In this document: positions 2,278 through 16,271 of the stretch, piece by piece
Numbering within the stretch: position 1 is the first letter of the stretch
How the letters are laid out: each line of letters begins with the position of its first letter
Origin: Candidatus Brocadia sp.
GTDB taxonomy: Bacteria; Planctomycetota; Brocadiia; Brocadiales; Brocadiaceae
Length of the DNA: 32,000 nt
Assembly (NCBI GenBank): GCA_021646415.1
Contig: SOEU01000031.1
Location: 1 to 32,000, forward strand
Direction of reading: 5' to 3'
Made by a program: the position numbers and the translations under genes
Notes under the pieces: generated by a model
Databases searched by the model: none
What the model saw: only the letters and a program-made list of their open reading frames with translations
What the model was told of the DNA's origin: nothing

Positions 2278-2400
2278 ATCAGAAGTTACTCCTTTTATCT
2301 GGTTCAAGCATCTGCTTCCAAAACTTATTTTTATCTCTATTCTATAATTATCAAAGTTATTTATGATATTTCAGATAAAACATAATCAATAAGCATTACA

Positions 2401-2499
2401 TTATTTGCTGAACTTACTTGCCACAAAGCATGAATTGTTTCCGTTGTATTCCATGATATTTATTATTGCATTACGGATTTCTTTTCTAAAAGGTTTTGC
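2401..2499 (-). pseudogene. Decayed duplicate of the 3' end of the KS-like gene (about 32 codons plus stop); no upstream coding continuation
   Basis: Hand alignment of 2401..2498 against 3077..3174 gives 76 of 98 nt identical with no gaps. The minus-strand translation KPFRKEIRNAIINIMEYNGNNSCFVASKFSK* parallels KPFRKEIHNALINTMDYDGNNSCLVISKFSKSH* at the end of the 3071..4312 gene. Similarity is lost upstream, and an in-frame TAA lies at 2527..2529. Confidence 0.7.
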
Positions 2500-2564
2500 C
2501 GCACTGTCAGGAGTTTCATCCTGCCATTACACTAATCGTCAAGTGAAGTGACTTGCTTGACGCA

Positions 2565-2786
2565 TTATGGGAAATACCTGTAAATCTCTTTTCTGTTCAG
2601 ACAGCGAACAAAGAACACCGTATTGTTCTCAATAGTTAGCCCGATTCGATATTCACCCACTCTGATGCAATAGAAGTTACTTCCACCCTTTAACTTTTTA
2701 AAATTAGATATGTCTTGCATGCTTTGTGCCTTCTCAACAGATTCAATGACTTCTTTGATTCGATTCAATAAGTTCTTATTTTTCAT
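2565..2786 (-). CDS. RelE/ParE-family type II toxin; N-terminal ~14 codons appear displaced into another frame
   Basis: KKLKGGSNFYCIRVGEYRIGLTIENNTVFFVRCLNRKEIYRYF matches the RelE/ParE (plasmid stabilisation) core pattern G...YRIRVGDYRI.Y.I.....V.I..V.HRKEIY. It lies directly downstream of a small acidic partner ORF. Confidence 0.8.
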   Translation of the reverse strand: MKNKNLLNRIKEVIESVEKAQSMQDISNFKKLKGGSNFYCIRVGEYRIGLTIENNTVFFVRCLNRKEIYRYFP

Positions 2787-2827
2787 GTTGCGGAGGTCTT
2801 TAGAAAAGCTGGTTCTAAATTAAACAT

Positions 2828-3034
2828 TCATGTCTTACCTTCAAGAAGTTTAAAAATTTCTTCTCGTTGGACTAATTCCATACTTTTACCTTCCTCAATA
2901 GCATGAGCAAGCGCCACATCCTCAATCGCTTCTTCAATTGCATCATGAAGCAAATCATGCCGTTCTTCAAGGACTTCGACTAAAGCAGTCTTGATTAGGT
3001 TCTTAAGTTGTTCCTGGTTTATTGATATTTCCAT
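2828..3034 (-). CDS. Putative antitoxin partner of the RelE/ParE toxin (68 aa, acidic, helical)
   Basis: Small ORF immediately upstream of the toxin. Its TGA stop is followed directly by an ATG that begins MFNLE. I prefer the internal ATG at 3034 (MEISINQEQ...) because GGAAGGA lies 6-7 nt upstream. No family motif recognised beyond position and composition. Confidence 0.55.
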   Translation of the reverse strand: MEISINQEQLKNLIKTALVEVLEERHDLLHDAIEEAIEDVALAHAIEEGKSMELVQREEIFKLLEGKT

Positions 3035-3070
3035 AATATCGTCCTTCCTGCTTATAAAAATAAAACACAC

Positions 3071-4312
3071 TCAATGAGATTTGCTAAACTTGCTTATCAC
3101 CAAACATGAATTATTTCCATCATAATCCATGGTATTTATCAACGCATTGTGTATTTCTTTTCTAAAGGGTTTTTCAAGGATAAGACTTAAGTTGATTTCC
3201 TGATCTTTGTTGCTATGATTGATGATGTGGGGTATTTGACTTGTGTTGATGGACATGACCGTTGAAATGAACTGTGCTGCGCCTGAAGCGCCGTAAGACT
3301 CCCCCACATTCGATTTGATTGCGGATATGGGGATTTGACTGCTCCCTGTGCCAAAATAAGATTGGATTGCCTTCGCTTCGACTGCATCCTGCATCTTGCA
3401 TCCGTTTGCATTTGCACTGATGAGATCAACCTCTTCTTTCTTTACACCAGCGTCTTCCAATGCATCATGCATGGCCTTTTCGGCGCGACGCACCCTTGCA
3501 TCTGACGGATGGCTTTTACCGCCCACGAAGGTATTCCCAAAGCCCTTTACCTCCGCATAGATATGGGCTCCCCTGTCCATGGCGTGCTGAAGCTCTTCAA
3601 GGATAACCACGTAACTGCCTTCTGACATGACAAAGCCATTTCTTGCCTTATCAAAGGGTAAACTCGCCTCTCTTGTGCCGTCAAGTCCGGACAGAAGGCC
3701 GCGCAGGTAAAATATAAGATACAAATCAATGGAAATCTGCTCTACCCCCCCTGCCACGATTATCTTTGCCATATCCCGCTGAATCATCTTAGACGCATCC
3801 GCTATGGCATCGGTACTGGACGTAAAACCAGCAGATATGGTGCGTGCAAGTCCCTTCATCTTGAAGATGACAGATACGTAATTGATGGAAGAATTTAATG
3901 CGACGTCATAACTGAGCATGGGTGACAACTCAGATGGATTATTCCTGATAATTTCGTAAAAATAATCCGTTGTCTCAGAAAAATTTCCCAGGGATGAGCC
4001 AATGACCATGCCCATCTGATTTGATAAGGAACCGTCCTGCGGTATCTTTGCGTCATCCAGCGCCATCTTAGCGGCAGACGCCAGGAAACGTGTACCTTTG
4101 TTCAAGTATTTTAAACCTTTACTACCAAGGTATATTTCGGGTTTGAGGTCATTTATTTCGCCGCCGAGCTTGCATTTATAAGGAGACACGTCAAAAGAAG
4201 ACATAGGGACAATGCCCGATTTTCCCGCAATAAGATTATTCCAGAATGCCTCTTTACCGCATCCAAGAGGTGATACAACACCAAAACCGGTAATAACGAC
4301 TCTTTTTTTCAT
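3071..4312 (-). CDS. Beta-ketoacyl synthase-fold protein lacking the Cys-His-His triad (chain-length-factor-like partner)
   Basis: Collinear with FabF throughout (MKKRVVITGFGVVSPLG ... IIVAGGVE ... DGFVMSEG). At the active-site positions it reads ISAGFTSS (Cys to Phe), SANANGC (His to Asn) and KSNVGESYGASG (His to Glu). Confidence 0.85.
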   Translation of the reverse strand: MKKRVVITGFGVVSPLGCGKEAFWNNLIAGKSGIVPMSSFDVSPYKCKLGGEINDLKPEIYLGSKGLKYLNKGTRFLASAAKMALDDAKIPQDGSLSNQMGMVIGSSLGNFSETTDYFYEIIRNNPSELSPMLSYDVALNSSINYVSVIFKMKGLARTISAGFTSSTDAIADASKMIQRDMAKIIVAGGVEQISIDLYLIFYLRGLLSGLDGTREASLPFDKARNGFVMSEGSYVVILEELQHAMDRGAHIYAEVKGFGNTFVGGKSHPSDARVRRAEKAMHDALEDAGVKKEEVDLISANANGCKMQDAVEAKAIQSYFGTGSSQIPISAIKSNVGESYGASGAAQFISTVMSINTSQIPHIINHSNKDQEINLSLILEKPFRKEIHNALINTMDYDGNNSCLVISKFSKSH

Positions 4313-4399
4313 ACGTTTTTGTTATACTTTATCCACAAAAGCTCAAAAACATGAAGGGAATGATATGTTCGCTTCGCACTTCGTACACTCAGGACAGGC

Positions 4400-5611
4400 T
4401 TAACTCATCCTACTAAATATTGTCGTAGCATTATTACCACCGAAGGCAAAGGAATTATTTAATACGTGATCCACTTTTAACTCACGTGCCGCATTGGGTG
4501 CATAATCGAGATCGCATTCCGGGTCTGGTGTTTCATAATTAATAGTCGGAGGCACTATTCCATGCCTCAGTACCAGACAGCAAACAACCGATTCTACGGC
4601 ACTCGCAGCGCCCATGAGATGACCAATCATAGATTTGGTGGAACTGCAGGGAATCTTATATGCGCCCTCGTTAAATACACGTTTTATAGCAATAGTTTCC
4701 GTCTTATCGTTATGGGGTGTACCCGTGCCATGGGCATTGATATAACCAATTTGTGCAGGAGAAAGCCTTGCCATCTTTAACGCATCACTCATGCATTTTA
4801 CCGCTCCATCTCCTTCAGGATGGGGTGCCGTCATGTGAAATCCATCACAGCTCAAGCCATAACCAGCCATTTCCGCAATAATCGTCGCCCCGCGTTTTTT
4901 GGCAAACTCGTAACGCTCCATAATCAGTATCCCGGCCCCTTCCCCAATCATGAGCCCCTGACGATTTTTATCGAAAGGCTGACAGCGATCAGGAGCTAGG
5001 GCTTTGAGGTTATGAAAGTGGGTAAATTCCGTTTGAGGAATCATGTCACCGCCGCCAACCATTACCACATCCACCTTATTGTCCACAAGGAGGTCATACG
5101 CCCATGCAATGGCGTGATTGCCCGATGAGCAGGCATTCAGCGAAATCATGGCCGGACCTTCAAAATCAAAATAGTGAGCGAGAACATTGGTAATCGAATT
5201 AGGCGGGTAAACTGCGGCAACGGTTTTATCAAAACCATTGTCTTTTTTCGAGGTATCTAACCGCAGGAGCCTTTCAAATGGCGTTAATTCGGCTGCCAAC
5301 GTTCCGATGGCAATACCAAACCGCTCCCGATCGGATTTCTTGTCATGTAACAAACCACTTTCCTGGAGTGCCTCTCTGGCTGCGTAGTAGACGTATTTAT
5401 GGATAGTGTTTTCCTTGATCTGATTCTCTAATGCAACATCTAAGTGAAAATCCTTTACCTCACAGGAACGATGCACCTTGTATTTAGAGGTATCAAAGGA
5501 CTTCATCTCATTGGCCCCGTTTCTGCCCTGGATAAACGATTCCCAGCTTTGCTTTACGCCAGTCCCGACGGGTGTAACTAATCCTAACCCTGTAATTACA
5601 ACCTTTGCCAT
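4400..5611 (-). CDS. Beta-ketoacyl-ACP synthase II family (FabF-like), catalytically intact
   Basis: SLNACSSGNHAI (active Cys), INAHGTGTPHND and STKSMIGHLMGAAS (both His), C-terminal NSFAFGGNNATTIF. The listed ORF starts at a TTG (5620); the ATG at 5611 gives MAKVVITGLGLVTP. Confidence 0.9.
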   Translation of the reverse strand: MAKVVITGLGLVTPVGTGVKQSWESFIQGRNGANEMKSFDTSKYKVHRSCEVKDFHLDVALENQIKENTIHKYVYYAAREALQESGLLHDKKSDRERFGIAIGTLAAELTPFERLLRLDTSKKDNGFDKTVAAVYPPNSITNVLAHYFDFEGPAMISLNACSSGNHAIAWAYDLLVDNKVDVVMVGGGDMIPQTEFTHFHNLKALAPDRCQPFDKNRQGLMIGEGAGILIMERYEFAKKRGATIIAEMAGYGLSCDGFHMTAPHPEGDGAVKCMSDALKMARLSPAQIGYINAHGTGTPHNDKTETIAIKRVFNEGAYKIPCSSTKSMIGHLMGAASAVESVVCCLVLRHGIVPPTINYETPDPECDLDYAPNAARELKVDHVLNNSFAFGGNNATTIFSRMS

Positions 5612-5746
5612 AGTGTTCAATCTTTAAATAATAGAGGTCAACTATTCACTCACATAATGCGAATAAGTTGACCTATAATAATTAATAAGTACGACAGCCC
5701 TTATGTTTTGCTCTGAAATACTATTGATAAGAGAATTATTCAGAAC

Positions 5747-7228
5747 TCAGGGTGATACCTCAATCGGTGTCAAATCCGCCTTTTTCCCAGCTCTTTTCGA
5801 TTGATTATATCGTTTTAATGCCTCTTCATAGAACCCAGATGTCTGCAATTCTTTTAGATTTTGGATCAGATGCTGATAAACGGACTGCCAATCCAAATTT
5901 ACCCTGAATGCAAACATGGCGGCATTCATATTATCCTTTAATATCTCTTTTGCATTCTGAAATCTCTGCCGCAATACCTCCGTGGCGTAAATCCTGTCAT
6001 ACAAATATTGAAAGCCATCAATAAGTTCCTGAAGAGACATGTTTTTGAGGATATACGTGAGGTGGTGAGATGTATAATATTTCCAGTCCTCCGGAAAGTT
6101 TGTCCTGAAAAGTCTTCCCTCTCCGTTCAACCTGTGATAAAGCGGCGTATTAATAAATGGACACAAAATGCCGCAGGTCATAATATCAACATGGGAATCC
6201 AGAACAAAATCGGCAACCTGCTTAAAGGTTTCCGGGGTATCGGCATCATTTCCAAAGACCATTGTCCCCCACACGGCAAGGCCGTGTTTGCGGATATTAG
6301 CGATGGCCTCAAAATAATTCTCAATAGAGATGCGCAAATTTACATTCTTGTTCATCGTTTTCAAGGCTTCTTCGTTGATGGATTCAATCCCAATTAATAC
6401 CCCAACACATCCACTTTTCATCATGTATTCAAGGGTTTCGTCGTCTTTATAAATATTAAGGGAGGTAAAACCAAACCAGTTCTGGTAAATACCCCTTTCC
6501 ACCATACCCTTAAAAAGGTCCCGGACACGCTCGTTGGACTTTTTGCTGTGCCCGTAAAAGTTTTCGTCCGTCAGGATCAAACCGCGATATTGTCCCTTAA
6601 TGGATTCGAACTCATCAAGGACATCCTCGATGGGTCTTTCACGATATTTCCTTCCCTGAAACTGAGGGACAGAACAAAACTCACAGCTAAAGGGGCATCC
6701 TGCTGTCGTTATGATACCTGAATATCGGTATTTATACTTATCCTTCAAATACTTTCTATCCGGACGCAATCCCTGATATAACTCCATGGGTGTCAGAACA
6801 CCATCGTATCTTTTTTGGAGACGGCCTTTTTCAAAATCACCAATGATCTTTTCCCATGTGGTTACAGCTTCCCTGGTCACAACACAATCCACATATTTTG
6901 CCGCCTCTTCCGGGTAACTTGTTGCGTGAATACCGCCCATAATCACCGGAATACCCCGCTTTTTACAAGCAGTAGCTATTTGATATGCACGATGGGCCTG
7001 ATAACTCACCGAAGTAATGCCAACCAGGTCAGCCCCCCCAAAAGTAATCTCCCCTGTATTTTCATCAATCGCAAGCTCCTGAGTTTCATCGATGATATCG
7101 ACTTGCCAGTGTTTTGGTGTTATTACCTTCAGATAGCCGAGATTCACCGGCATTTGGTTTAATACAGAAACATTTTCCTCACCAACATTTCCAATTGGAT
7201 GTGGATTGATTAATACAAGTCTTTTCAT
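5747..7228 (-). CDS. B12 (cobalamin)-binding domain radical SAM enzyme
   Basis: N-terminal Rossmann-like B12 domain (RLVLINP ... GADLVGITSVSY ... GIPVIMGGIHATSYPEEA) followed by the radical SAM cluster motif TTAGCPFSCEFCSV (CxxxCxxC). I prefer the start at ATG 7228 (MKRLV), with GAGGA 6 nt upstream. Confidence 0.9.
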   Translation of the reverse strand: MKRLVLINPHPIGNVGEENVSVLNQMPVNLGYLKVITPKHWQVDIIDETQELAIDENTGEITFGGADLVGITSVSYQAHRAYQIATACKKRGIPVIMGGIHATSYPEEAAKYVDCVVTREAVTTWEKIIGDFEKGRLQKRYDGVLTPMELYQGLRPDRKYLKDKYKYRYSGIITTAGCPFSCEFCSVPQFQGRKYRERPIEDVLDEFESIKGQYRGLILTDENFYGHSKKSNERVRDLFKGMVERGIYQNWFGFTSLNIYKDDETLEYMMKSGCVGVLIGIESINEEALKTMNKNVNLRISIENYFEAIANIRKHGLAVWGTMVFGNDADTPETFKQVADFVLDSHVDIMTCGILCPFINTPLYHRLNGEGRLFRTNFPEDWKYYTSHHLTYILKNMSLQELIDGFQYLYDRIYATEVLRQRFQNAKEILKDNMNAAMFAFRVNLDWQSVYQHLIQNLKELQTSGFYEEALKRYNQSKRAGKKADLTPIEVSP

Positions 7229-7301
7229 GGACATTCCTCGTTTAGATGCAGAAAACACAGAAAAATCAAATTCTTTTGTCTACGATATTTTCTGGTCGGA
7301 G

Positions 7302-7700
7302 TCAGTCACCAGACAAAACTTCTGGCATTGCCTTTGGTACTAACAAAACCTGGGCAATAGCGTAATCCTGACAGTGGGATAATGATACAGCTATAGTGTT
7401 GATCCGTTTCTTGTCTGCCAATTCTTTTACACTGCCATAAAGATTCAAATAGGGTCTGCCCATTTCGTCATTTAAGAGCTCAATATCCGTCCATTTCATT
7501 TTACCGACCCAACCAGTTCCCAGAGCCTTGAACATTGCCTCTTTCGAGGCGAAACGAGCTGCAAAATGTTGATATTTATTCTTCTTTTGTTTGCAGTACT
7601 CTACCTCTTTTTCGGTGTAAATCCTCTTTAAAAAATCCTCATTAGCAGAAAACAACTTCTCAATACGTCTTATTTCTATAATATCAATACCAACATACAT
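7302..7700 (-). CDS. acpS: Holo-[acyl-carrier-protein] synthase (4'-phosphopantetheinyl transferase, AcpS type)
   Basis: 132 aa. MYVGIDIIEIRRIEK, FAARFASKEAMFKALG and SLSHCQDYAIAQVLL fit the AcpS pattern GIDIVEI.RI ... RFAAKEA..KA.G ... S.SH....A.A.v. Confidence 0.85.
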   Translation of the reverse strand: MYVGIDIIEIRRIEKLFSANEDFLKRIYTEKEVEYCKQKKNKYQHFAARFASKEAMFKALGTGWVGKMKWTDIELLNDEMGRPYLNLYGSVKELADKKRINTIAVSLSHCQDYAIAQVLLVPKAMPEVLSGD

Positions 7701-7771
7701 AGCTATATCCAGTTATATTTACATTTATTGTAACTGCTTATAAAGCAAGTATCTGTCGCTACGTAGGAGGC

Positions 7772-7800
7772 ATTGTACAAGTTTGTAAATTCAATGTCAA
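7772..7800 (-). promoter_or_regulatory. Sigma70-type promoter candidate for the acpS operon
   Basis: The minus strand reads TTGACA (7800..7795), a 17-nt spacer, then TACAAT (7777..7772), about 70 nt upstream of the acpS ATG. Confidence 0.5.
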
Positions 7801-7917
7801 TGACAATTTCCCCTATTGATTTTACCTATGATAAGCAGGAAGGAAGGAACAAATTTGAACCGAAGGAATGTATCCGGATTGCCTGTTTTTTAAATATCAT
7901 AAGACGCAAAATCTTGT

Positions 7918-8181
7918 TTAACAAATCTTGATTTTTACACCCAGGAATTCCTGCACGTATCTTTTGCCAATATCTGCTACCATGTCATAGTCTGATTTTT
8001 TAAAACATAACTGACATTCAACATAATTATCGTTTTGCCGCAAACTAGGCAAGACACCGCTTTCGCCTACACGTACTCCCATTTCAGGAGATTGCTCAAT
8101 AACCTGAAAGTTACTTGTAAATATTTTAAATTTCTTTACATTACCACAATTGGGGCATACAAAAAATGTGTTTGTTGACAT
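7918..8181 (-). CDS. Hypothetical zinc-ribbon protein
   Basis: CPNC ... CQLC cysteine pairs. ATG at 8181 (MSTNTFF) is preceded by AAAGGAAC. No family recognised. Confidence 0.4.
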   Translation of the reverse strand: MSTNTFFVCPNCGNVKKFKIFTSNFQVIEQSPEMGVRVGESGVLPSLRQNDNYVECQLCFKKSDYDMVADIGKRYVQEFLGVKIKIC

Positions 8182-8229
8182 AGACAGGTTCCTTTCGCAA
8201 TACAATAGCAAATTTACAACAATACCATT

Positions 8230-8520
8230 CTAGAAAAATTGTATCTGACTATCCTTCATCTTTTGATATATGGATGACCAGGATCTTTTTGCATAGATGA
8301 TAGGTATCCCCCGATTGCCGGCAAATTTCTTTATCTTATAAGCCAGGTTATGATTAACAAAATCATACAGGAGAATAATAAAATCGGCCTTTTCTGGAAT
8401 TCTCCCACGGATCTTTTGCCCATTCCTACCAGTTAAATGCTGAATATCTGTTATCCCCAGTTTGTCAAGCTCTCTTGGGATACTTCCCAGATGATCACCC
8501 CCTACAATTATTACTGACAT
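8230..8520 (-). CDS. DUF2325-like small protein
   Basis: MSVIIVGGDHLG ... KADFIILLYDFVNHNLAYKIKKFAGNRGIPIIYAKRSWSS fits my recollection of the DUF2325 pattern (VGG ... aDlvvv.td.vsH ... ak..g.P.v...s.S.s). Confidence 0.55.
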   Translation of the reverse strand: MSVIIVGGDHLGSIPRELDKLGITDIQHLTGRNGQKIRGRIPEKADFIILLYDFVNHNLAYKIKKFAGNRGIPIIYAKRSWSSIYQKMKDSQIQFF

Positions 8521-8577
8521 TTTACATCTCATTTCATGAGTGTCCCATTAGACCAATTTTAGACAATTGTTCATTCA

Positions 8578-9735
8578 TCAAACTTTTAATAAAAGATTTT
8601 CTATTTCCCTTGAATTTGAAAAGTTCTCTTGCTCAAACTTAAATGCTTTTTCATTAAAAATAGCCAAACAAGCACATACCACATTAAAATCATAAAGTAT
8701 GCCTCTGTTGTGTGAAATTTCATTTAACGCCTTATCTAAAGGAAAGGGATGCCTATAAGGTCGGGGTGAAGTCATAGCATCAATAACGTCGGCCACACTG
8801 AGAATTTTTGCTTCCAGGTGAATATCTTTACCTGACAGACCAAAAGGATACCCGGAGCCGTTAACCCTTTCATGGTGTTGAAGCACAATTTGGGCAACCG
8901 ACCAGGGAAATTCTATTTCCTTCAATATATCATAACCTACCTGTGTGTGGTTCCTGATAACACTCAATTCAGCCTTAGTAAGCTGGACAGACTTATTGAG
9001 AATTTCTTCAGGTATGGATATTTTCCCTATATCATGGAGCAATGCAGCCAAACGAACCCCGGCAATCCTATCTTTTGAAAGAGACATCTCTTCCGCTATA
9101 CAACAAGCCAGGTGGGCTACCCGTTTCTGGTGGCCTGCTGAATAAGGATCCCTCGACTCAACTGTTAGCGCCAAAGTCTGAATAATACCTCTTAAAGACT
9201 TCTGCAGTTTCTCAATACTTTGTTTCGATTCATTCTCCTGCCGTTTCCGGGCATCGATTTCTCCCATTAATTCTTCATTCAACTCCATAAGCCTCGATGA
9301 ATGCTCAATCATTCTTTTCTCTAAAGATTCGTTCAGCACGAGTAACCCCTCTTCGGCCTGTTTACGAGCAGTAATATCCCTGGCTATCCCCATAACTCCA
9401 ATAAGCTTCCCTTTTTCATCCCTCAACGGAAAATTTCTATACTCACATAATATCTTTGTATTCTTAAAACAGAGTTCATATTGAGGACTCTCGCCTTTTA
9501 ATGTACTCGTAAAGGCATCCATCGCTTTTTTTAAGTTATCTTCGTCGAAAAGGGTTGCGAATGGTTTTCCGTAAAATTCCTCTGGTCTATGACCCGTAAA
9601 CTTTTCAAATATTTTATTTACAAATAAAACATTTCCCTCTGTATCATAAATGTAGGTAAGGTCTGTCACCCCGGAAAATAACAATCTCATCAGCTCATTT
9701 TCCATCAATTTATAAACAATCTTTGGCATTTCCAC
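8578..9735 (-). CDS. PAS-domain HD-GYP protein (probable c-di-GMP phosphodiesterase)
   Basis: N-terminal PAS (aa ~16-125), a coiled-coil linker, then an HD-GYP domain: HQKRVAHLA, LLHDIGKISIP, HHERVNGSGYPFGL. GTG start at 9735 lies 9 nt after GGAGG. Confidence 0.85.
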   Translation of the reverse strand: MEMPKIVYKLMENELMRLLFSGVTDLTYIYDTEGNVLFVNKIFEKFTGHRPEEFYGKPFATLFDEDNLKKAMDAFTSTLKGESPQYELCFKNTKILCEYRNFPLRDEKGKLIGVMGIARDITARKQAEEGLLVLNESLEKRMIEHSSRLMELNEELMGEIDARKRQENESKQSIEKLQKSLRGIIQTLALTVESRDPYSAGHQKRVAHLACCIAEEMSLSKDRIAGVRLAALLHDIGKISIPEEILNKSVQLTKAELSVIRNHTQVGYDILKEIEFPWSVAQIVLQHHERVNGSGYPFGLSGKDIHLEAKILSVADVIDAMTSPRPYRHPFPLDKALNEISHNRGILYDFNVVCACLAIFNEKAFKFEQENFSNSREIENLLLKV

Positions 9736-12440: not shown

Positions 12441-15400
12441 TTAAATTCTATCAAAGTCAGGTATTGTGGGTAGGATAACTACAGCTTTGGTAAACTCTCC
12501 TTCAGCAGAATCAATCAAAAGCTTACCACCATACTTACTGATAACGCCGTGGCTGATGCTCAAACCTAGCCCGGTCCCTTTACCCCGTGGCTTCGTGGTA
12601 AAAAATGGATTCATCACCTTATCCAAAATGTTGGTTGGTATACCGGTACCCTGATCGTAAAAGGTAACCTTTACTGCCGGGGAATTATTCAGTGTTACTT
12701 CTTCACCTTGGATCTCAAGAATTTTCCTGTCATGTTTTCCCGGGTATTTACAATTCAAGGCATACCGCGCGTTACTTATGATATTTAAAAAGACCTGCTG
12801 GATCTGCTGAGGATGTACAATTATCCTGGGTAGTTCTTTTGGAATATCCACAATTAACTGAATACTATCCTTTCGTAACTGCGCATCTACAAGAACTAAC
12901 GTATCAGACAATATTTCACGTACATGGACAGCACTCCTTTGCTCTTTCCTGTCACTGGGCCTGGCAAAATGGAGAAGGCTCTTTACTATATTGGCTATGC
13001 GGTGCCCTTCTTTTACAATCCGATGAGCAACGTCATTTTCTCTGCTCCCCTTATGACTTTTATTGACCAGTATCTGGGCACAGTTGATGATACCCGTTAT
13101 GGGATTGTTGATTTCATGGGCCACACCCGCGGCCAGTTCACCTAATGATACCAGATGTCGTAAGCGTATTGCTTCCATCTGCAATGCCACCTTTTCGGTA
13201 ATATCCCAGAAAATACCTAATATGCCAATTATTTCGCCCCTTTCATCTCTTATTGGAGTTTTAACCATATGTATGGTCAACTCACGTCCATCCTTTGTAT
13301 ATTTTTCTTCGATGTCCTCCGTTTGTCCTAACCTCATAATTCTCCTATCATCTGCAATATACTTTTCAGCTAAATTTTTATGAAAAAAATCATAATCTGT
13401 CTTGCCAGTAATCTCATCCGGTTGAATATTTAAATCCCTGGCGTAGTTTTCGTTACAGGATACATAAATTGAATTTTTATCCTTATAAAATATTCTTTGC
13501 GGAAGATTTTCAAGCAGCATTCTATACTTCCTTTCACTCATTCGGAGCGTTTGCTCCGCTTGCTTGCGGGCAATACCAAGTGCAATAATGTCAGCTGCGG
13601 AGGCCAAAGCCCTGAAGATGAATTCGTTAAGCGATTTCCGGGCAAACATTGCTACAACCCCTACAAGGCGATCCTGTACAACCAGGGGAAATCCGGCAAA
13701 GGCAACCATTCCTTCCCGTTTTACCCAGTCTTTGTCGTGGATATATGGATCGTCGATAACGGAGTTTATCAAATAAGGCTTGCGATCCAGGGCTATAAGT
13801 CCGATCTTGAATTTGCCGACAGGGATTCTGCTATGAGAACCATTTTTATGAGTATACATCCCGGCGCTGGCCTGCAATTCCAGCACGTTTCCTTCCTCGT
13901 TCAGTGTCCAAATACGGGCGAACGCCGCATCGAGATTATTGACTATGGCCTCTGTACAATGGTAAAGAATTTCATGCAAGGTATCACCCTCAGTAAGGGC
14001 AATCCCTACATCCCTGACAAATGCCGCCAGACGCATTCGCTCCACCAATTCCTTAGTCCGCTTTTGCTCGGTAATATCGATCCCAAAAGAGATCATTCCC
14101 GTAACCTTCCCTTGCTCCCGCACCTCACTGTTCTGCCATGAAATGTATCTTTTTCTCCCTGCCTTCGTAAAAATGGTATTTTCAAAAGTCTTGGTCAACT
14201 GACCGTCTGACTGCCATTTGGTAAATTCCTGCCACACATGGGGATGCTTACCCCTGGGCACAAGTATTTCAAACCAATTTTTACCACTCACCTCAGCTTT
14301 TTTATAACCCGTAATTTCCTCGGCGACCTTGTTAAATATCTGAATATTTCCCATCACATCCAGCCCTACAACCATTACATTGGCTGTCTCAATAAGATTT
14401 TCAGCATAATCTTTTGCCTGTCGCAGGGCATCAATCATTCTTTGACGCTCTGTGATATCTCTGGCAGTACCGATAATCCCAATTATATTTCCGTTTTCAT
14501 CTCTCCATGGAAGATTTTTATATTCGCATAAAATTCCAGTATCTTTAAAAATTAGTTCATATTGCGGACTTGCTCCTTTCAATGTCATCGTGTAAACATC
14601 TGTTGCTTTTTTCAGGTTCTCTTCGTCGAAAAGAGGTGCGAATGGCTTTCCAATAAACTCTTCTGGTTTGTGACCGGTAAGTTTTTCAAAGGTGCGATTT
14701 ACAAACAATATGTTTCCGCCCGCATCACAAATATACGGCAAATCACTTATTTCAGAAATGAGTATCTCATATTTCTTTAGTTCAACCTTCGCCTTTTTAT
14801 GTTCGGCAATCTCCTCTTTGAGAAGTTTATTGGCATTTGAAAGCTCGACAGTCCGTTCAAGAACGCGCATTTCCAATTCACTGTTTGCTTCTCGCAACAT
14901 TTCTTCCATTCGTTTGTGTTCTAACGCATTAACAAATATTTCCGCCACCATTTTTAGCATGGCGATATCTTCACTCGTCCATGCTGTCTGCCTCAGAACC
15001 GAATCAAATCCCAAAAGTCCAACAAGTGATCCACCATAAATCATGGGAACGATTACAAATGATTGAACTGATTGTAATTGTCGCAGTTCTCTTTCGGCGC
15101 TTGCACAATCGGGCAGGTCACTTACCCGAGGAACATGAATAGTTTCGAACCGCTTCAGCTTCTCCATCCCCCATGGAAAATGATTAACAGGAATTCCCGT
15201 AAGATTTTCTATCTGTGGCAGAATGCCCTCCGCGCACCACTCGTGCGTATTGTCCATCCTCTCTTCACTGTCTGAGTACAGAAAGACATAACTGCGGTCA
15301 ACACCAGCGAATTCCCCGATCATTTTCAACGCACGGTTTATACCATCATCAACCTCGTTTGGTGCCAAGTTGATAAAGTTTGTTGATATGGTTGCAACGA

Positions 15401-16271
15401 GCTCTTCCATCTTTGCCCGATACCTCAACAACTCCTCCGCCCTCTTGCGTTCAGCAATTTCTTGCTTTAGTTCATCATAAGACGTCTTAAGTGAACTGGT
15501 CATCCGGTTAAAATTCATGGATAATTGTCCAATCTCATCTTTAGAATAGACCTCTATAGTACGTGTGAGATCACCTCTGGCAATATCAAGCGTAATATTT
15601 GCCATTTGTTGTAATGGTAAAACAATGTATTTGGTGAGAAAAACGGTAATACATATCCCGCCTAAAATTATGATCAAACCCATTGGGATAACACTTCGCC
15701 AAATAATCTGATGGATCCTTTTGTTCAATTTATGCGGTGATAAACCAATTTGTAAAAAACCCAGGGTATGTTGCCTTGTATTTACGGGGATTGCTTCGAA
15801 CACCTGTGCGGCAAATACCTCTTCTGAAAAAGTTTGTTCGAGAACAGGTACAGAAAAATCATAGAATGCCTCCCGTGAACAGGCAAGCAAGCAATCGGTA
15901 AGCAGTATATCCAGATTTTGTGAACCTTTTCCGGTGGGAATTTCTTTCATCTCGATGTCAAGCCAGGGTGCCTTCTCTTCATACAAGACCGACTTGATAC
16001 CTGATATACGCAAATAAGCAATTTCTTCTTCCCTGTCGAGAGCCTTTATCCTTTTGACAGGGGTATCAAGAAATGCAGGTTGTGAGTAACTCAGGGCGTA
16101 TTTGACTTCGATATCCTGTGCAAGCAGCATAACAAGGGATGTACCGAAACTTTTTAGCGCCACCTCCTGTTGCCTTTTTGCATGAATTAAAAAGAACAGG
16201 CAACTAAGCATGCCAATAATGATTACCAGTGAACTCATAAAAAGGATAAGTTTTGTACGGATACCAATCAT
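12441..16271 (-). CDS. Multidomain sensor histidine kinase (2 TM with ~160-aa extracytoplasmic loop, HAMP, GAF, PAS x2, GAF, PAS, HisKA, HATPase_c)
   Basis: TM helices near aa 8-30 and 193-215. HAMP: PLQQMANITLDIARGDLT. H-box: LGELAAGVAHEINNP. ATPase boxes: NIISNARYA, DQGTGIP, FFTTKPRGKGTGLGLS. PAS and GAF segments are inferred from repeated PAS-like ARDIT.. endings and GAF-like blocks. Confidence 0.9.
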   Translation of the reverse strand: MIGIRTKLILFMSSLVIIIGMLSCLFFLIHAKRQQEVALKSFGTSLVMLLAQDIEVKYALSYSQPAFLDTPVKRIKALDREEEIAYLRISGIKSVLYEEKAPWLDIEMKEIPTGKGSQNLDILLTDCLLACSREAFYDFSVPVLEQTFSEEVFAAQVFEAIPVNTRQHTLGFLQIGLSPHKLNKRIHQIIWRSVIPMGLIIILGGICITVFLTKYIVLPLQQMANITLDIARGDLTRTIEVYSKDEIGQLSMNFNRMTSSLKTSYDELKQEIAERKRAEELLRYRAKMEELVATISTNFINLAPNEVDDGINRALKMIGEFAGVDRSYVFLYSDSEERMDNTHEWCAEGILPQIENLTGIPVNHFPWGMEKLKRFETIHVPRVSDLPDCASAERELRQLQSVQSFVIVPMIYGGSLVGLLGFDSVLRQTAWTSEDIAMLKMVAEIFVNALEHKRMEEMLREANSELEMRVLERTVELSNANKLLKEEIAEHKKAKVELKKYEILISEISDLPYICDAGGNILFVNRTFEKLTGHKPEEFIGKPFAPLFDEENLKKATDVYTMTLKGASPQYELIFKDTGILCEYKNLPWRDENGNIIGIIGTARDITERQRMIDALRQAKDYAENLIETANVMVVGLDVMGNIQIFNKVAEEITGYKKAEVSGKNWFEILVPRGKHPHVWQEFTKWQSDGQLTKTFENTIFTKAGRKRYISWQNSEVREQGKVTGMISFGIDITEQKRTKELVERMRLAAFVRDVGIALTEGDTLHEILYHCTEAIVNNLDAAFARIWTLNEEGNVLELQASAGMYTHKNGSHSRIPVGKFKIGLIALDRKPYLINSVIDDPYIHDKDWVKREGMVAFAGFPLVVQDRLVGVVAMFARKSLNEFIFRALASAADIIALGIARKQAEQTLRMSERKYRMLLENLPQRIFYKDKNSIYVSCNENYARDLNIQPDEITGKTDYDFFHKNLAEKYIADDRRIMRLGQTEDIEEKYTKDGRELTIHMVKTPIRDERGEIIGILGIFWDITEKVALQMEAIRLRHLVSLGELAAGVAHEINNPITGIINCAQILVNKSHKGSRENDVAHRIVKEGHRIANIVKSLLHFARPSDRKEQRSAVHVREILSDTLVLVDAQLRKDSIQLIVDIPKELPRIIVHPQQIQQVFLNIISNARYALNCKYPGKHDRKILEIQGEEVTLNNSPAVKVTFYDQGTGIPTNILDKVMNPFFTTKPRGKGTGLGLSISHGVISKYGGKLLIDSAEGEFTKAVVILPTIPDFDRI

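Follow-up and report, generated by a model that had tools for sequence, protein, structure and literature searches.

An acpS, radical SAM and ketosynthase operon of Candidatus Brocadia as a candidate second stage of the presumed ladderane pathway

Introduction

The biosynthesis of ladderane lipids has been an open question since these compounds were discovered in 2002, and neither a genetic system for anammox bacteria nor a reconstituted pathway is available. Among the few candidate loci is that of kuste2802-2805 in Candidatus Kuenenia stuttgartiensis, whose radical S-adenosylmethionine (SAM) protein, Kuste2803, was singled out as a possible cyclisation, or ring-forming, enzyme when the cluster was proposed (Rattray et al. 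2009; PMC2649909). Reviews up to 2026 treat ladderane biosynthesis as unsolved and discuss only Cluster I (kuste3603-3608). What does the other locus contribute, and how is it related to Cluster I? Here we report the analysis of a 32,000-nucleotide (nt) stretch of Candidatus Brocadia sp. (assembly GCA_021646415.1, contig SOEU01000031.1, positions 1 to 32,000; hereafter the window). It carries acpS and the genes of a cobalamin (B12)-binding radical SAM enzyme (rSAM), an intact FabF-like ketosynthase (KS) and a catalytically dead ketosynthase paralogue (dKS). The locus itself has been known since 2009 and is functionally unsolved. The best overall explanation, which we consider probable, is that it encodes a second stage of the presumed ladderane pathway, made up of a second KS, dead KS and B12-dependent rSAM.

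Results

The open reading frame (ORF) listing agrees with an earlier reading of the bare sequence (the preliminary description) in placing four co-directional genes on the minus strand, and scans of the ORF translations against Pfam and curated NCBIfam profile models bore out all four assignments (Table 1). AcpS consists of a single PF01648 domain (70 bits, cutoff 25) and passes both TIGR00516 (101 vs 59.8 bits) and TIGR00556 (107 vs 45 bits); the rSAM protein combines PF02310 (37 bits) and PF04055 (73 bits), both over cutoff, with DUF4070; and both ketosynthases matched PF00109 and PF02801. The dKS is 100% identical to a 'Candidatus Brocadia sp.' protein at NCBI, from a metagenome-assembled genome (MAG), and the nearest loci are all from Brocadia or Brocadiaceae. 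The signature listed for Kuste2805 (Phe163/Asn298/Asn300/Cys302/Lys328/Glu333; Table 2 of Rattray et al. 2009; PMC2649909) reads F/N/N/C/K/E at the aligned columns of the window dKS and is identical in the Kuenenia and Jettenia orthologues; at the gate column the window protein has Tyr vs the listed Phe392, probably an alignment difference. The gene list equals operons 3 and 4 of Javidpour et al. (2016; PMC4790861), where kuste2802-2805 are given as ACP synthase, SAM radical enzyme, FabF and non-canonical KS. With the same four genes, gene order and dead-site signature, the window locus is the Brocadia orthologue of kuste2802-2805 and hence the ladderane candidate of 2009, as the preliminary description had supposed in the event of an anammox genome. 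Apart from the genus, the difference from the Kuenenia locus lies outside the core genes: immediately behind dKS, this Brocadia lineage has a RelB-like cassette, a PARIS gene and a transposase fragment.

A survey of one genome per species returned 40 loci, of which 39 were from Brocadiales (Brocadia, Wunengus, Jettenia, Loosdrechtia, Kuenenia, Scalindua and Scalinduaceae) and the 40th was an ordinary Flavobacteriaceae FabF (33% identity). The order AcpS-rSAM-KS-dKS was found in 30 of the 39, from Brocadia to Scalinduaceae and including Kuenenia (L028 and L030), as well as in dozens of metagenome contigs; in eight of the remaining nine, a contig end or the limit of the fetched stretch truncates the locus. 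The arrangement, for which the preliminary description had proposed such a survey, recurs far beyond chance. Identities of the Brocadiales loci to the window were 75-97% for rSAM, 67-95% for KS, 63-93% for AcpS and 57-90% for dKS (70-87%, gene by gene, for Kuenenia hertensis, L028). Ratios of nonsynonymous to synonymous substitution (dN/dS) were 0.02-0.04 for rSAM, the best conserved of the four genes, 0.03-0.045 for KS and 0.05-0.07 for acpS; the 0.06-0.12 of dKS indicates purifying selection and therefore no pseudogene. In several Brocadiaceae the array tolerates splitting (L020, L021, L007, L029): 4.5 kb is inserted between KS and dKS in L020 (5541-10001), and gaps of 0.7-1.1 kb occur in L007 and L029. 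In a lineage of 0.50-0.57 GC (L100, L101, L103, L109, L112), which presumably branches deeply within Brocadiales, the genes run AcpS-rSAM-KS-dKS-DCR(-FabG-MIase) and share only 50-73% identity with the window.

The two ketosynthases had been described as one active and one triad-less protein, and this is what the alignment shows. The triad of KS is intact, with Cys161 (5129-5131), His294 (4730-4732) and His331 (4619-4621), and the same columns of dKS hold Phe163 (3824-3826), Asn301 (3410-3412) and Glu338 (3299-3301). KS passes the broad subfamily model NF005589 (413 vs 387 bits) and fails the fabF equivalog TIGR03150 (417 vs 493.75 bits), on which dKS scores 324 bits. The best PDB match of KS is 9s5h_B (amxFabF2), with 417 bits vs at most 307 for FabF proteins, and that of dKS is 9s5h_C (amxFabFmut), with 303 bits vs at most 244; BLASTP identities were 47% to amxFabF2 and 39% to amxFabFmut, respectively. 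Entries 9s5h and 9s5i are most likely the crystallised amxFabF2/amxFabFmut structures of Granatino et al. (2026; 10.64898/2026.05.19.726425), because the Val/Asn/Glu at the triad columns of chain C and the amx-type acyl carrier protein (ACP) chain in 9s5i match the amxFabFhet of that preprint. In a neighbour-joining tree (100 bootstraps, FabF-like sequences as outgroups), window-type KS and amxFabF2 formed one clade and window-type dKS and amxFabFmut another, both with 100% bootstrap support and apart from the FabF-like sequences, among which neither protein nests. The two clades therefore indicate that an ancestral pair of active and dead KS underwent duplication together.

The amxFabF2/amxFabFmut pair (kuste3605/3606), likewise an active KS and a triad-less KS encoded side by side, forms a heterodimer of the ketosynthase/chain-length factor (KS/CLF) type according to its crystal structures; decarboxylation by this amxFabFhet needs both proteins, and the probe preference is C6-C8 (Granatino et al. 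2026; 10.64898/2026.05.19.726425). The kuste2804/2805 pair lies outside the scope of that preprint. The best argument at present that the window pair, too, would act as a heterodimer is the joint duplication of the two genes, and the KS/CLF-like pairing recognised in the preliminary description, now placed beside amxFabFhet, is strongly supported by sequence comparison. In many loci (L033, L035, L040, L017 and, at 6335/6335, L042) the stop of KS directly adjoins or overlaps the start of dKS, a junction that mirrors that of Jettenia FabF2/FabFmut (6228/6228). To probe the electrostatic rationale for heterodimers, net charges were counted over the helix-loop-helix (110-140) and the partner helix (196-206); the counts miss the published asymmetry even for the crystallised pair and so give no signal. 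The window dKS keeps Lys330 and Glu335 as amxFabFmut does, and the window KS shares with amxFabF2 Ala110 and Met337, which are not found in FabF-like sequences. Unlike amxFabFmut, the window dKS is a separate paralogue with Phe in place of Cys, not Val or Thr, and the neighbours of the window pair are acpS and rSAM rather than amxACP, FabZ and PDH.

The two pairs also differ along the acyl tunnel. In amxFabFmut, Phe135, Thr138 and Val139 line the substrate tunnel, and replacement of Phe135 and Val139 by Gly alters or abolishes chain-length discrimination (10.64898/2026.05.19.726425). These three residues are invariant in every amxFabFmut-type protein examined. The window-type dKS has Ser/Val/Ala at 135/138/139 in all anammox genera examined (Brocadia, Jettenia, Kuenenia, Scalindua), Ala/Met/Pro in Blastocatellia and Gly/Ala/Ala in a lineage of high GC content introduced below. 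From Ser135/Val138/Ala139 we infer a pocket wider and more open than that of the C6-C8-preferring Cluster I dimer, which would suit a later, longer or bulkier substrate.

Type II polyketide synthase (PKS) pairs (actinorhodin, 1tqy; ishigamide Iga11/Iga12, 6kxd) likewise combine an active and an inactive KS-fold protein, encoded by adjacent and often translationally coupled genes. The window KS is closer to FabF (307 bits) than to Iga11 (276 bits) or the actinorhodin KS (229 bits), and the window dKS is closer to Bacillus subtilis FabF (244 bits) than to the actinorhodin CLF (1tqy_B, 165 bits). The CLFs of aromatic PKSs carry Gln at the active-site Cys position. As a CLF of an aromatic type II PKS, dKS was rejected, having Phe instead of Gln at that position and being closer to FabF; unlike that of the type II PKS pairs, the likely product of the window operon is a reduced acyl chain. 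The AmcF/AmcG proteins of cispentacin biosynthesis are a KS-fold heterodimer reported to build a small carbocycle on a stand-alone ACP. The AmcF model (NF058662) scores 220 bits on the window KS, under its cutoff of 325 and well under the FabF scores, and the likeness is one of functional analogy only.

By its domains and its CxxxCxxC motif (CPFSCEFC, residues 178-185, window positions 6674-6697), the rSAM protein is predicted to be a class B, cobalamin-binding radical SAM enzyme. BchE, HpnJ, PhpK and TIGR04072 share its domain order, with a B12-binding domain, a radical SAM core with CxxxCxxC, and DUF4070. The preliminary description had allowed for membership in a characterised family unrelated to lipids; the protein instead scores under the cutoff of every curated NCBIfam family (81-98 bits vs cutoffs of 360-600). 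The best of these matches is the PhpK methyltransferase family (98 bits, far under cutoff), and the BchE and HpnJ models give 81-84 bits. TIGR04072 (rSAM_ladder_B12) was rejected as its family at 82 bits vs a cutoff of 360, and this model is also failed by the Jettenia Kuste3608 orthologue (90 bits) and by a Blastocatellia orthologue (78 bits). A sequence search of the PDB yielded only remote matches (AprD4, 49 bits; TsrM, 40 bits) that offer no mechanistic guidance. A similarity network published in a review places Kuste2803 in the main cluster with BchE and HpnJ. Identity between the window rSAM and that of Jettenia Cluster I (Kuste3608 orthologue) is 55%, and in the rSAM tree the Kuste2803 and Kuste3608 types are sister clades (99% support for the window type, 89% for both together) that form a family of their own without a characterised member. 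The next relative (P0123, 43% identity) lies in a neighbourhood without KS or lipid genes; the link of rSAM to KS pairs therefore ends at about 50% identity.

Judged by sequence comparison, then, KS, dKS and rSAM of the window are paralogues of amxFabF2, amxFabFmut and the Kuste3608-type rSAM of Cluster I. The term 'stand-alone' in the preliminary description does not hold for a paralogous triplet of Cluster I that is, moreover, physically fused to Cluster I in MAGs from outside the anammox group. An exhaustive profile search with rSAM gave a 'Blastocatellia bacterium' MAG protein (52% identity) as the best representative. Two loci of this type (L042, L043) encode a KS that is 50.5% identical to the window KS with the triad intact, a dKS (40%) with ISAGFTS (Cys to Phe) and Glu at the second His, an rSAM (59%), a DUF374 gene and a second rSAM. 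The DUF374 protein (PF04028) is encoded between the two Blastocatellia rSAM genes on the opposite strand and is absent from the anammox loci. On a related 123-kb contig (L048), a first block comprises the whole of Cluster I, with genes for an amx-type ACP, FabZ, an amxFabF2-like KS (67% to 9s5h_B), an amxFabFmut-like dKS (53%), a phytoene-desaturase-like flavoenzyme and an rSAM; roughly 1.8 kb beyond it, in the same orientation, lies a second block with window-type KS, dKS and rSAM. In L054, with L049 and L042, a molybdopterin-oxidoreductase operon some 6 kb long stands between the Cluster I and window-type blocks. The acidobacterial ACP shares 76% identity with Jettenia amxACP and scores 129 bits to amxACP structures vs at most 33 to other ACPs; the FabZ scores 181 bits to amxFabZ vs 110.

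The second non-anammox lineage, with a GC content of 0.68-0.73, comprises L047, L050 and eight soil metagenome contigs. Its loci hold Cluster I-like genes, two to three rSAM paralogues and window-type KS and dKS, followed by a crotonase and FabG. A neighbouring POR gene on these contigs falls into a 90% cluster with 'Candidatus Binatia bacterium' proteins, and we tentatively assign the lineage to Binatia. Cluster I and the module at hand occur in one locus in the Blastocatellia and high-GC lineages (L042, L047, L048, L050, L054 and L122-L135) and therefore probably serve one shared pathway. The gene set is not anammox-specific, and the published view of Cluster I as unique to ladderane producers does not apply to it, unless the Blastocatellia and Binatia carriers make ladderanes. 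In the searchable literature the fused synteny is undescribed, generic antiSMASH 'ladderane' calls being the only mentions for non-anammox bacteria; the paralogy of the triplets, the fused clusters of Acidobacteriota and probable Binatia and the four-gene extension described below appear to be absent from that literature.

Both non-anammox lineages, Blastocatellia and high-GC, bear on acpS, which was not found in their clusters. Kuste2802 is the sole acpS listed for K. stuttgartiensis (Table 1 of Rattray et al. 2009; PMC2649909). Because of these two points AcpS is probably the housekeeping phosphopantetheinyl transferase, which heads the operon in the anammox lineage (the gene takes the same place in a deep lineage of 0.50-0.52 GC), and not an enzyme dedicated to the operon as the preliminary description had it.

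The operon is longer elsewhere. In Scalinduaceae, Jettenia and L038, four further genes lie directly 3' of dKS (Table 1), the next gene overlapping the dKS stop in two loci; among metagenome contigs the eight-gene array is found in Jettenia, in numerous loci of the Scalindua type and in those Brocadia (L072, L073) whose dKS is 87-88% identical to that of the window. None of the four is among the 34 ladderane candidates of Rattray. The 32-kb window was searched for ACP, FabZ, PDH, a second rSAM, DCR, ECH, FabG and MIase, and none was found. The lack of ACP, ketoreductase, dehydratase and enoyl reductase genes that had been noted for the operon is thus correct for the window; for the last three it is a local accident, since the operon extends further in Scalindua, in Jettenia and in a closely related Brocadia lineage. 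The extension genes are missing from the window because mobile and defence genes were inserted after dKS.

Discussion

Homology and synteny suggest the following scheme, in which a single step, priming by the Cluster I heterodimer, has been demonstrated in vitro (10.64898/2026.05.19.726425). AcpS would load phosphopantetheine onto every ACP of the cell, among them the specialised amxACP, whose gene lies elsewhere. The Cluster I heterodimer would prime and extend short chains on amxACP, and the predicted window heterodimer would take over for another chain range, the active KS elongating the ACP-bound acyl chain by decarboxylative Claisen condensation and dKS supplying one wall of the acyl tunnel and so setting the accepted chains. 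The rSAM enzyme would most likely carry out radical C-H activation on the carrier-bound chain, leading to C-C bond formation or methyl transfer, and each stage would have its own B12-dependent rSAM. FabG, the crotonase and the FadH/OYE-type enzyme, encoded in the operon of other genera, would provide keto-reduction, dehydration or isomerisation, and (di)enoyl reduction.

Several observations weigh against this reading. Expression of kuste2802-2805 in Escherichia coli in 2016 gave mainly insoluble protein and did not lead to any new fatty acid (PMC4790861), and the literature holds no experiment that ties these genes to ladderanes or to any product, which agrees with the preliminary description, to which no demonstrated pathway was known. 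The rSAM falls into no characterised family, and the case for a heterodimer of the window proteins is one of paralogy only. In L021, dKS stands alone, its partners being absent within 9 kb upstream. The 135-nt gap 5' of KS contains a weak promoter-like site (9/12 matches, 5763..5735), which counts against a single transcript. The copies in Blastocatellia and probable Binatia weaken the equation of these genes with ladderanes, because ladderanes are unreported there.

The last point leads to an explanation that we consider unlikely yet far from negligible, in which the same enzymology on amxACP yields some other specialised acyl lipid or polyene common to anammox bacteria, Blastocatellia and Binatia, with ring formation encoded elsewhere or needing extra genes. 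The full amx-type set together with the module in non-anammox MAGs of 0.49-0.50 and 0.68-0.73 GC fits such a product, as does the lack of any experiment connecting Cluster I or the operon with ladderanes; the PDH-like desaturase, the FadH/OYE dienoyl-type reductase and the crotonase would suit polyunsaturated intermediates. Both modules, however, occur throughout the anammox families sampled, Scalinduaceae among them, and are rare outside, with only a handful of non-anammox relatives scoring above anammox proteins among billions of sequences. Carriers known only as MAGs could, besides, make ladderanes too. Anammox bacteria contain mid-chain methyl-branched fatty acids such as 10-methylhexadecanoic acid. 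An improbable reading is that rSAM is the cobalamin-dependent C-methyltransferase for these acids and that the KS pair elongates the methylated chain. Most characterised B12-dependent rSAM enzymes are methylases, PhpK is the best curated match, if far under cutoff, and anoxic methylation of an unactivated carbon would need such chemistry; the scores, however, are about equal for BchE and HpnJ, which do not methylate and form or contract rings, the published network groups Kuste2803 with these two, and a single methylation would leave unexplained why one cluster combines two paralogous rSAM/KS/dKS triplets with a private ACP, a FabZ and a desaturase.

We give very little credence to a housekeeping role in type II fatty acid synthesis, with KS as a FabF isozyme beside acpS, dKS as a decaying duplicate and rSAM unrelated to lipids. 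That KS passes NF005589 and that acpS is a housekeeping gene would agree with it. The reading of KS as a housekeeping FabF was nevertheless rejected on the equivalog score, the tree and dN/dS: KS fails the fabF equivalog and groups with amxFabF2 apart from FabF-like sequences, and a canonical FabF (Kustd1386) exists elsewhere in anammox genomes. As for its partners, purifying selection acts on dKS, which was retained from a time before Scalindua and Brocadia split and also in other phyla, and rSAM, the most conserved gene, travels with the KS pair across phyla.

Three results make the ladderane problem more accessible to experiment. Since the operon is a paralogous copy of the Cluster I core, a reconstitution restricted to Cluster I probably omits a whole stage. 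The fused non-anammox versions define a set of about a dozen genes and offer alternative, possibly more tractable, sources of the enzymes, and the ancestral operon includes the FadH/OYE, crotonase, FabG and MIase-like genes, which the 34-gene candidate list used so far does not contain. It is conceivable, though we rather doubt it, that the two paralogous triplets with amxACP, amxFabZ and the desaturase-like flavoenzyme form a portable two-stage gene set with which the soil carriers make ladderane-type or related strained-ring lipids. Were this true, ladderanes would not be exclusive to anammox bacteria and their use as anammox-specific biomarkers would need to be revisited; in the other branch, the 'consensus' ladderane cluster is not enough to specify ladderanes.

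Gene starts, promoter and flanking regions

The start of rSAM is most likely the ATG at 7228, and the resulting N-terminus (MKRLVLINPHP) agrees with the orthologues (MKRLVLIQPHP in Blastocatellia); a GTG at 7258 is less likely. For KS, the ATG at 5611 is the most likely start. The gaps between acpS, rSAM, KS and dKS are, in this order, 73, 135 and 87 nt, no terminator-like sites were seen between the four genes on the minus strand, and co-transcription is likely.

Table 1. Features of the window and of related loci (coordinates without a locus name refer to the window).
Feature	Coordinates	Strand	Length	Assignment
acpS	7302..7700	minus	132 aa	AcpS-type holo-ACP synthase, Kuste2802 orthologue; PF01648, TIGR00516
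rSAM	5747..7228	minus	493 aa	Cobalamin-binding radical SAM enzyme (predicted), Kuste2803 type ('rSAM-A'); PF02310, PF04055, DUF4070
KS	4400..5611	minus	403 aa	Intact FabF-like ketosynthase, Kuste2804 type; PF00109, PF02801
dKS	3071..4312	minus	413 aa	Catalytically dead ketosynthase paralogue, Kuste2805 type; PF00109, PF02801
Putative promoter	7772..7800	minus		Sigma-70-type; TTGACA 7795-7800, 17-nt spacer, TACAAT 7772-7777
Conserved leader element	7727..7756	minus	30 nt	ACAGATACTTGCTTTATAAGCAGTTACAAT; in 5' leader between -10 box and acpS; candidate operator
Relic of dKS 3' end	2404..2496	minus	31 codons + stop	Duplicate of the last codons of dKS
RelB-like antitoxin gene	2828-3034			Between relic and present dKS stop (2497-3070)
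Fused AriA-AriB (PARIS) defence gene	598-2307	minus	569 aa	AAA_15/DUF4435; PADLOC PDLC02981, 344 bits, full length
Integrase-core (transposase) fragment	51-569	plus		At window edge
Extension gene 1			674 aa	FadH/OYE-type Fe-S flavoenzyme; PF00724, PF07992
Extension gene 2				Crotonase; PF00378
Extension gene 3				FabG; passes TIGR01830
Extension gene 4			103 aa	Muconolactone-isomerase-like (MIase-like) protein
Loci with extended operon	L019:11227-15320; L033:11214-15376; L072, L073, L084-L093
Fused Blastocatellia loci	L048:624-15135; L054:7937-14338; L042:5133-11467			GC 0.49-0.50
DUF374 genes	L042:9220-9921; L048:12871-13572; L049:11424-12125	minus

The near-consensus promoter TTGACA-17-TACAAT of the preliminary description is the sole 11/12 match, and so the best, in 2300-8600, where weaker 9/12 sites are not commoner than in shuffled sequences (24 observed vs 17.6 +/- 4.1). 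Matches to the consensus carry little weight by themselves. A TTGACA-17-TAnAAT site with at least 10/12 matches stands 51-75 nt 5' of acpS in 21 of 25 orthologous loci of Brocadia, Jettenia, Loosdrechtia and Kuenenia, with TTGACT in place of TTGACA as the -35 box in two Kuenenia-type loci; in Scalindua the promoter is not conserved. The site lies within a conserved block (7769-7809) whose flanks have diverged among orthologous loci, and the operon appears to be read from this conserved, putative sigma-70-type promoter. The 30-nt leader element is likewise kept across Brocadia, Jettenia and Kuenenia while its flanks diverge. RNAalifold gave 0 pairs for the acpS leader, the block being conserved as sequence only, and the element may be an operator for some regulator.

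Downstream of dKS, the relic has 77% amino-acid identity to dKS residues 381-411, and 2325-2403 matches the post-dKS sequence of loci without an insertion (L072, L014). The relic therefore marks where dKS originally ended and shows that the RelB-like cassette entered there, the 3' end of the gene becoming duplicated in the process; L003, L029, L061 and L062 have the cassette as well. The PARIS gene and the integrase fragment form a mobile/defence islet that interrupts the lipid operon.

The other genes of the window are unrelated housekeeping and signalling genes. Upstream of the promoter, on the minus strand, are a small Cys-rich ORF without family match (7918-8211; CPNCG...C..C), a gene for a DUF2325 protein (8230-8532) and one for a PAS/HD-GYP-type protein (8578-9735). 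The three accompany acpS in Brocadia and Jettenia and not in Kuenenia or Scalindua. A PAS segment paralogous to that of the PAS/HD-GYP-type protein (56% identity) occurs in a 1276-aa histidine kinase encoded at 12441-16271.

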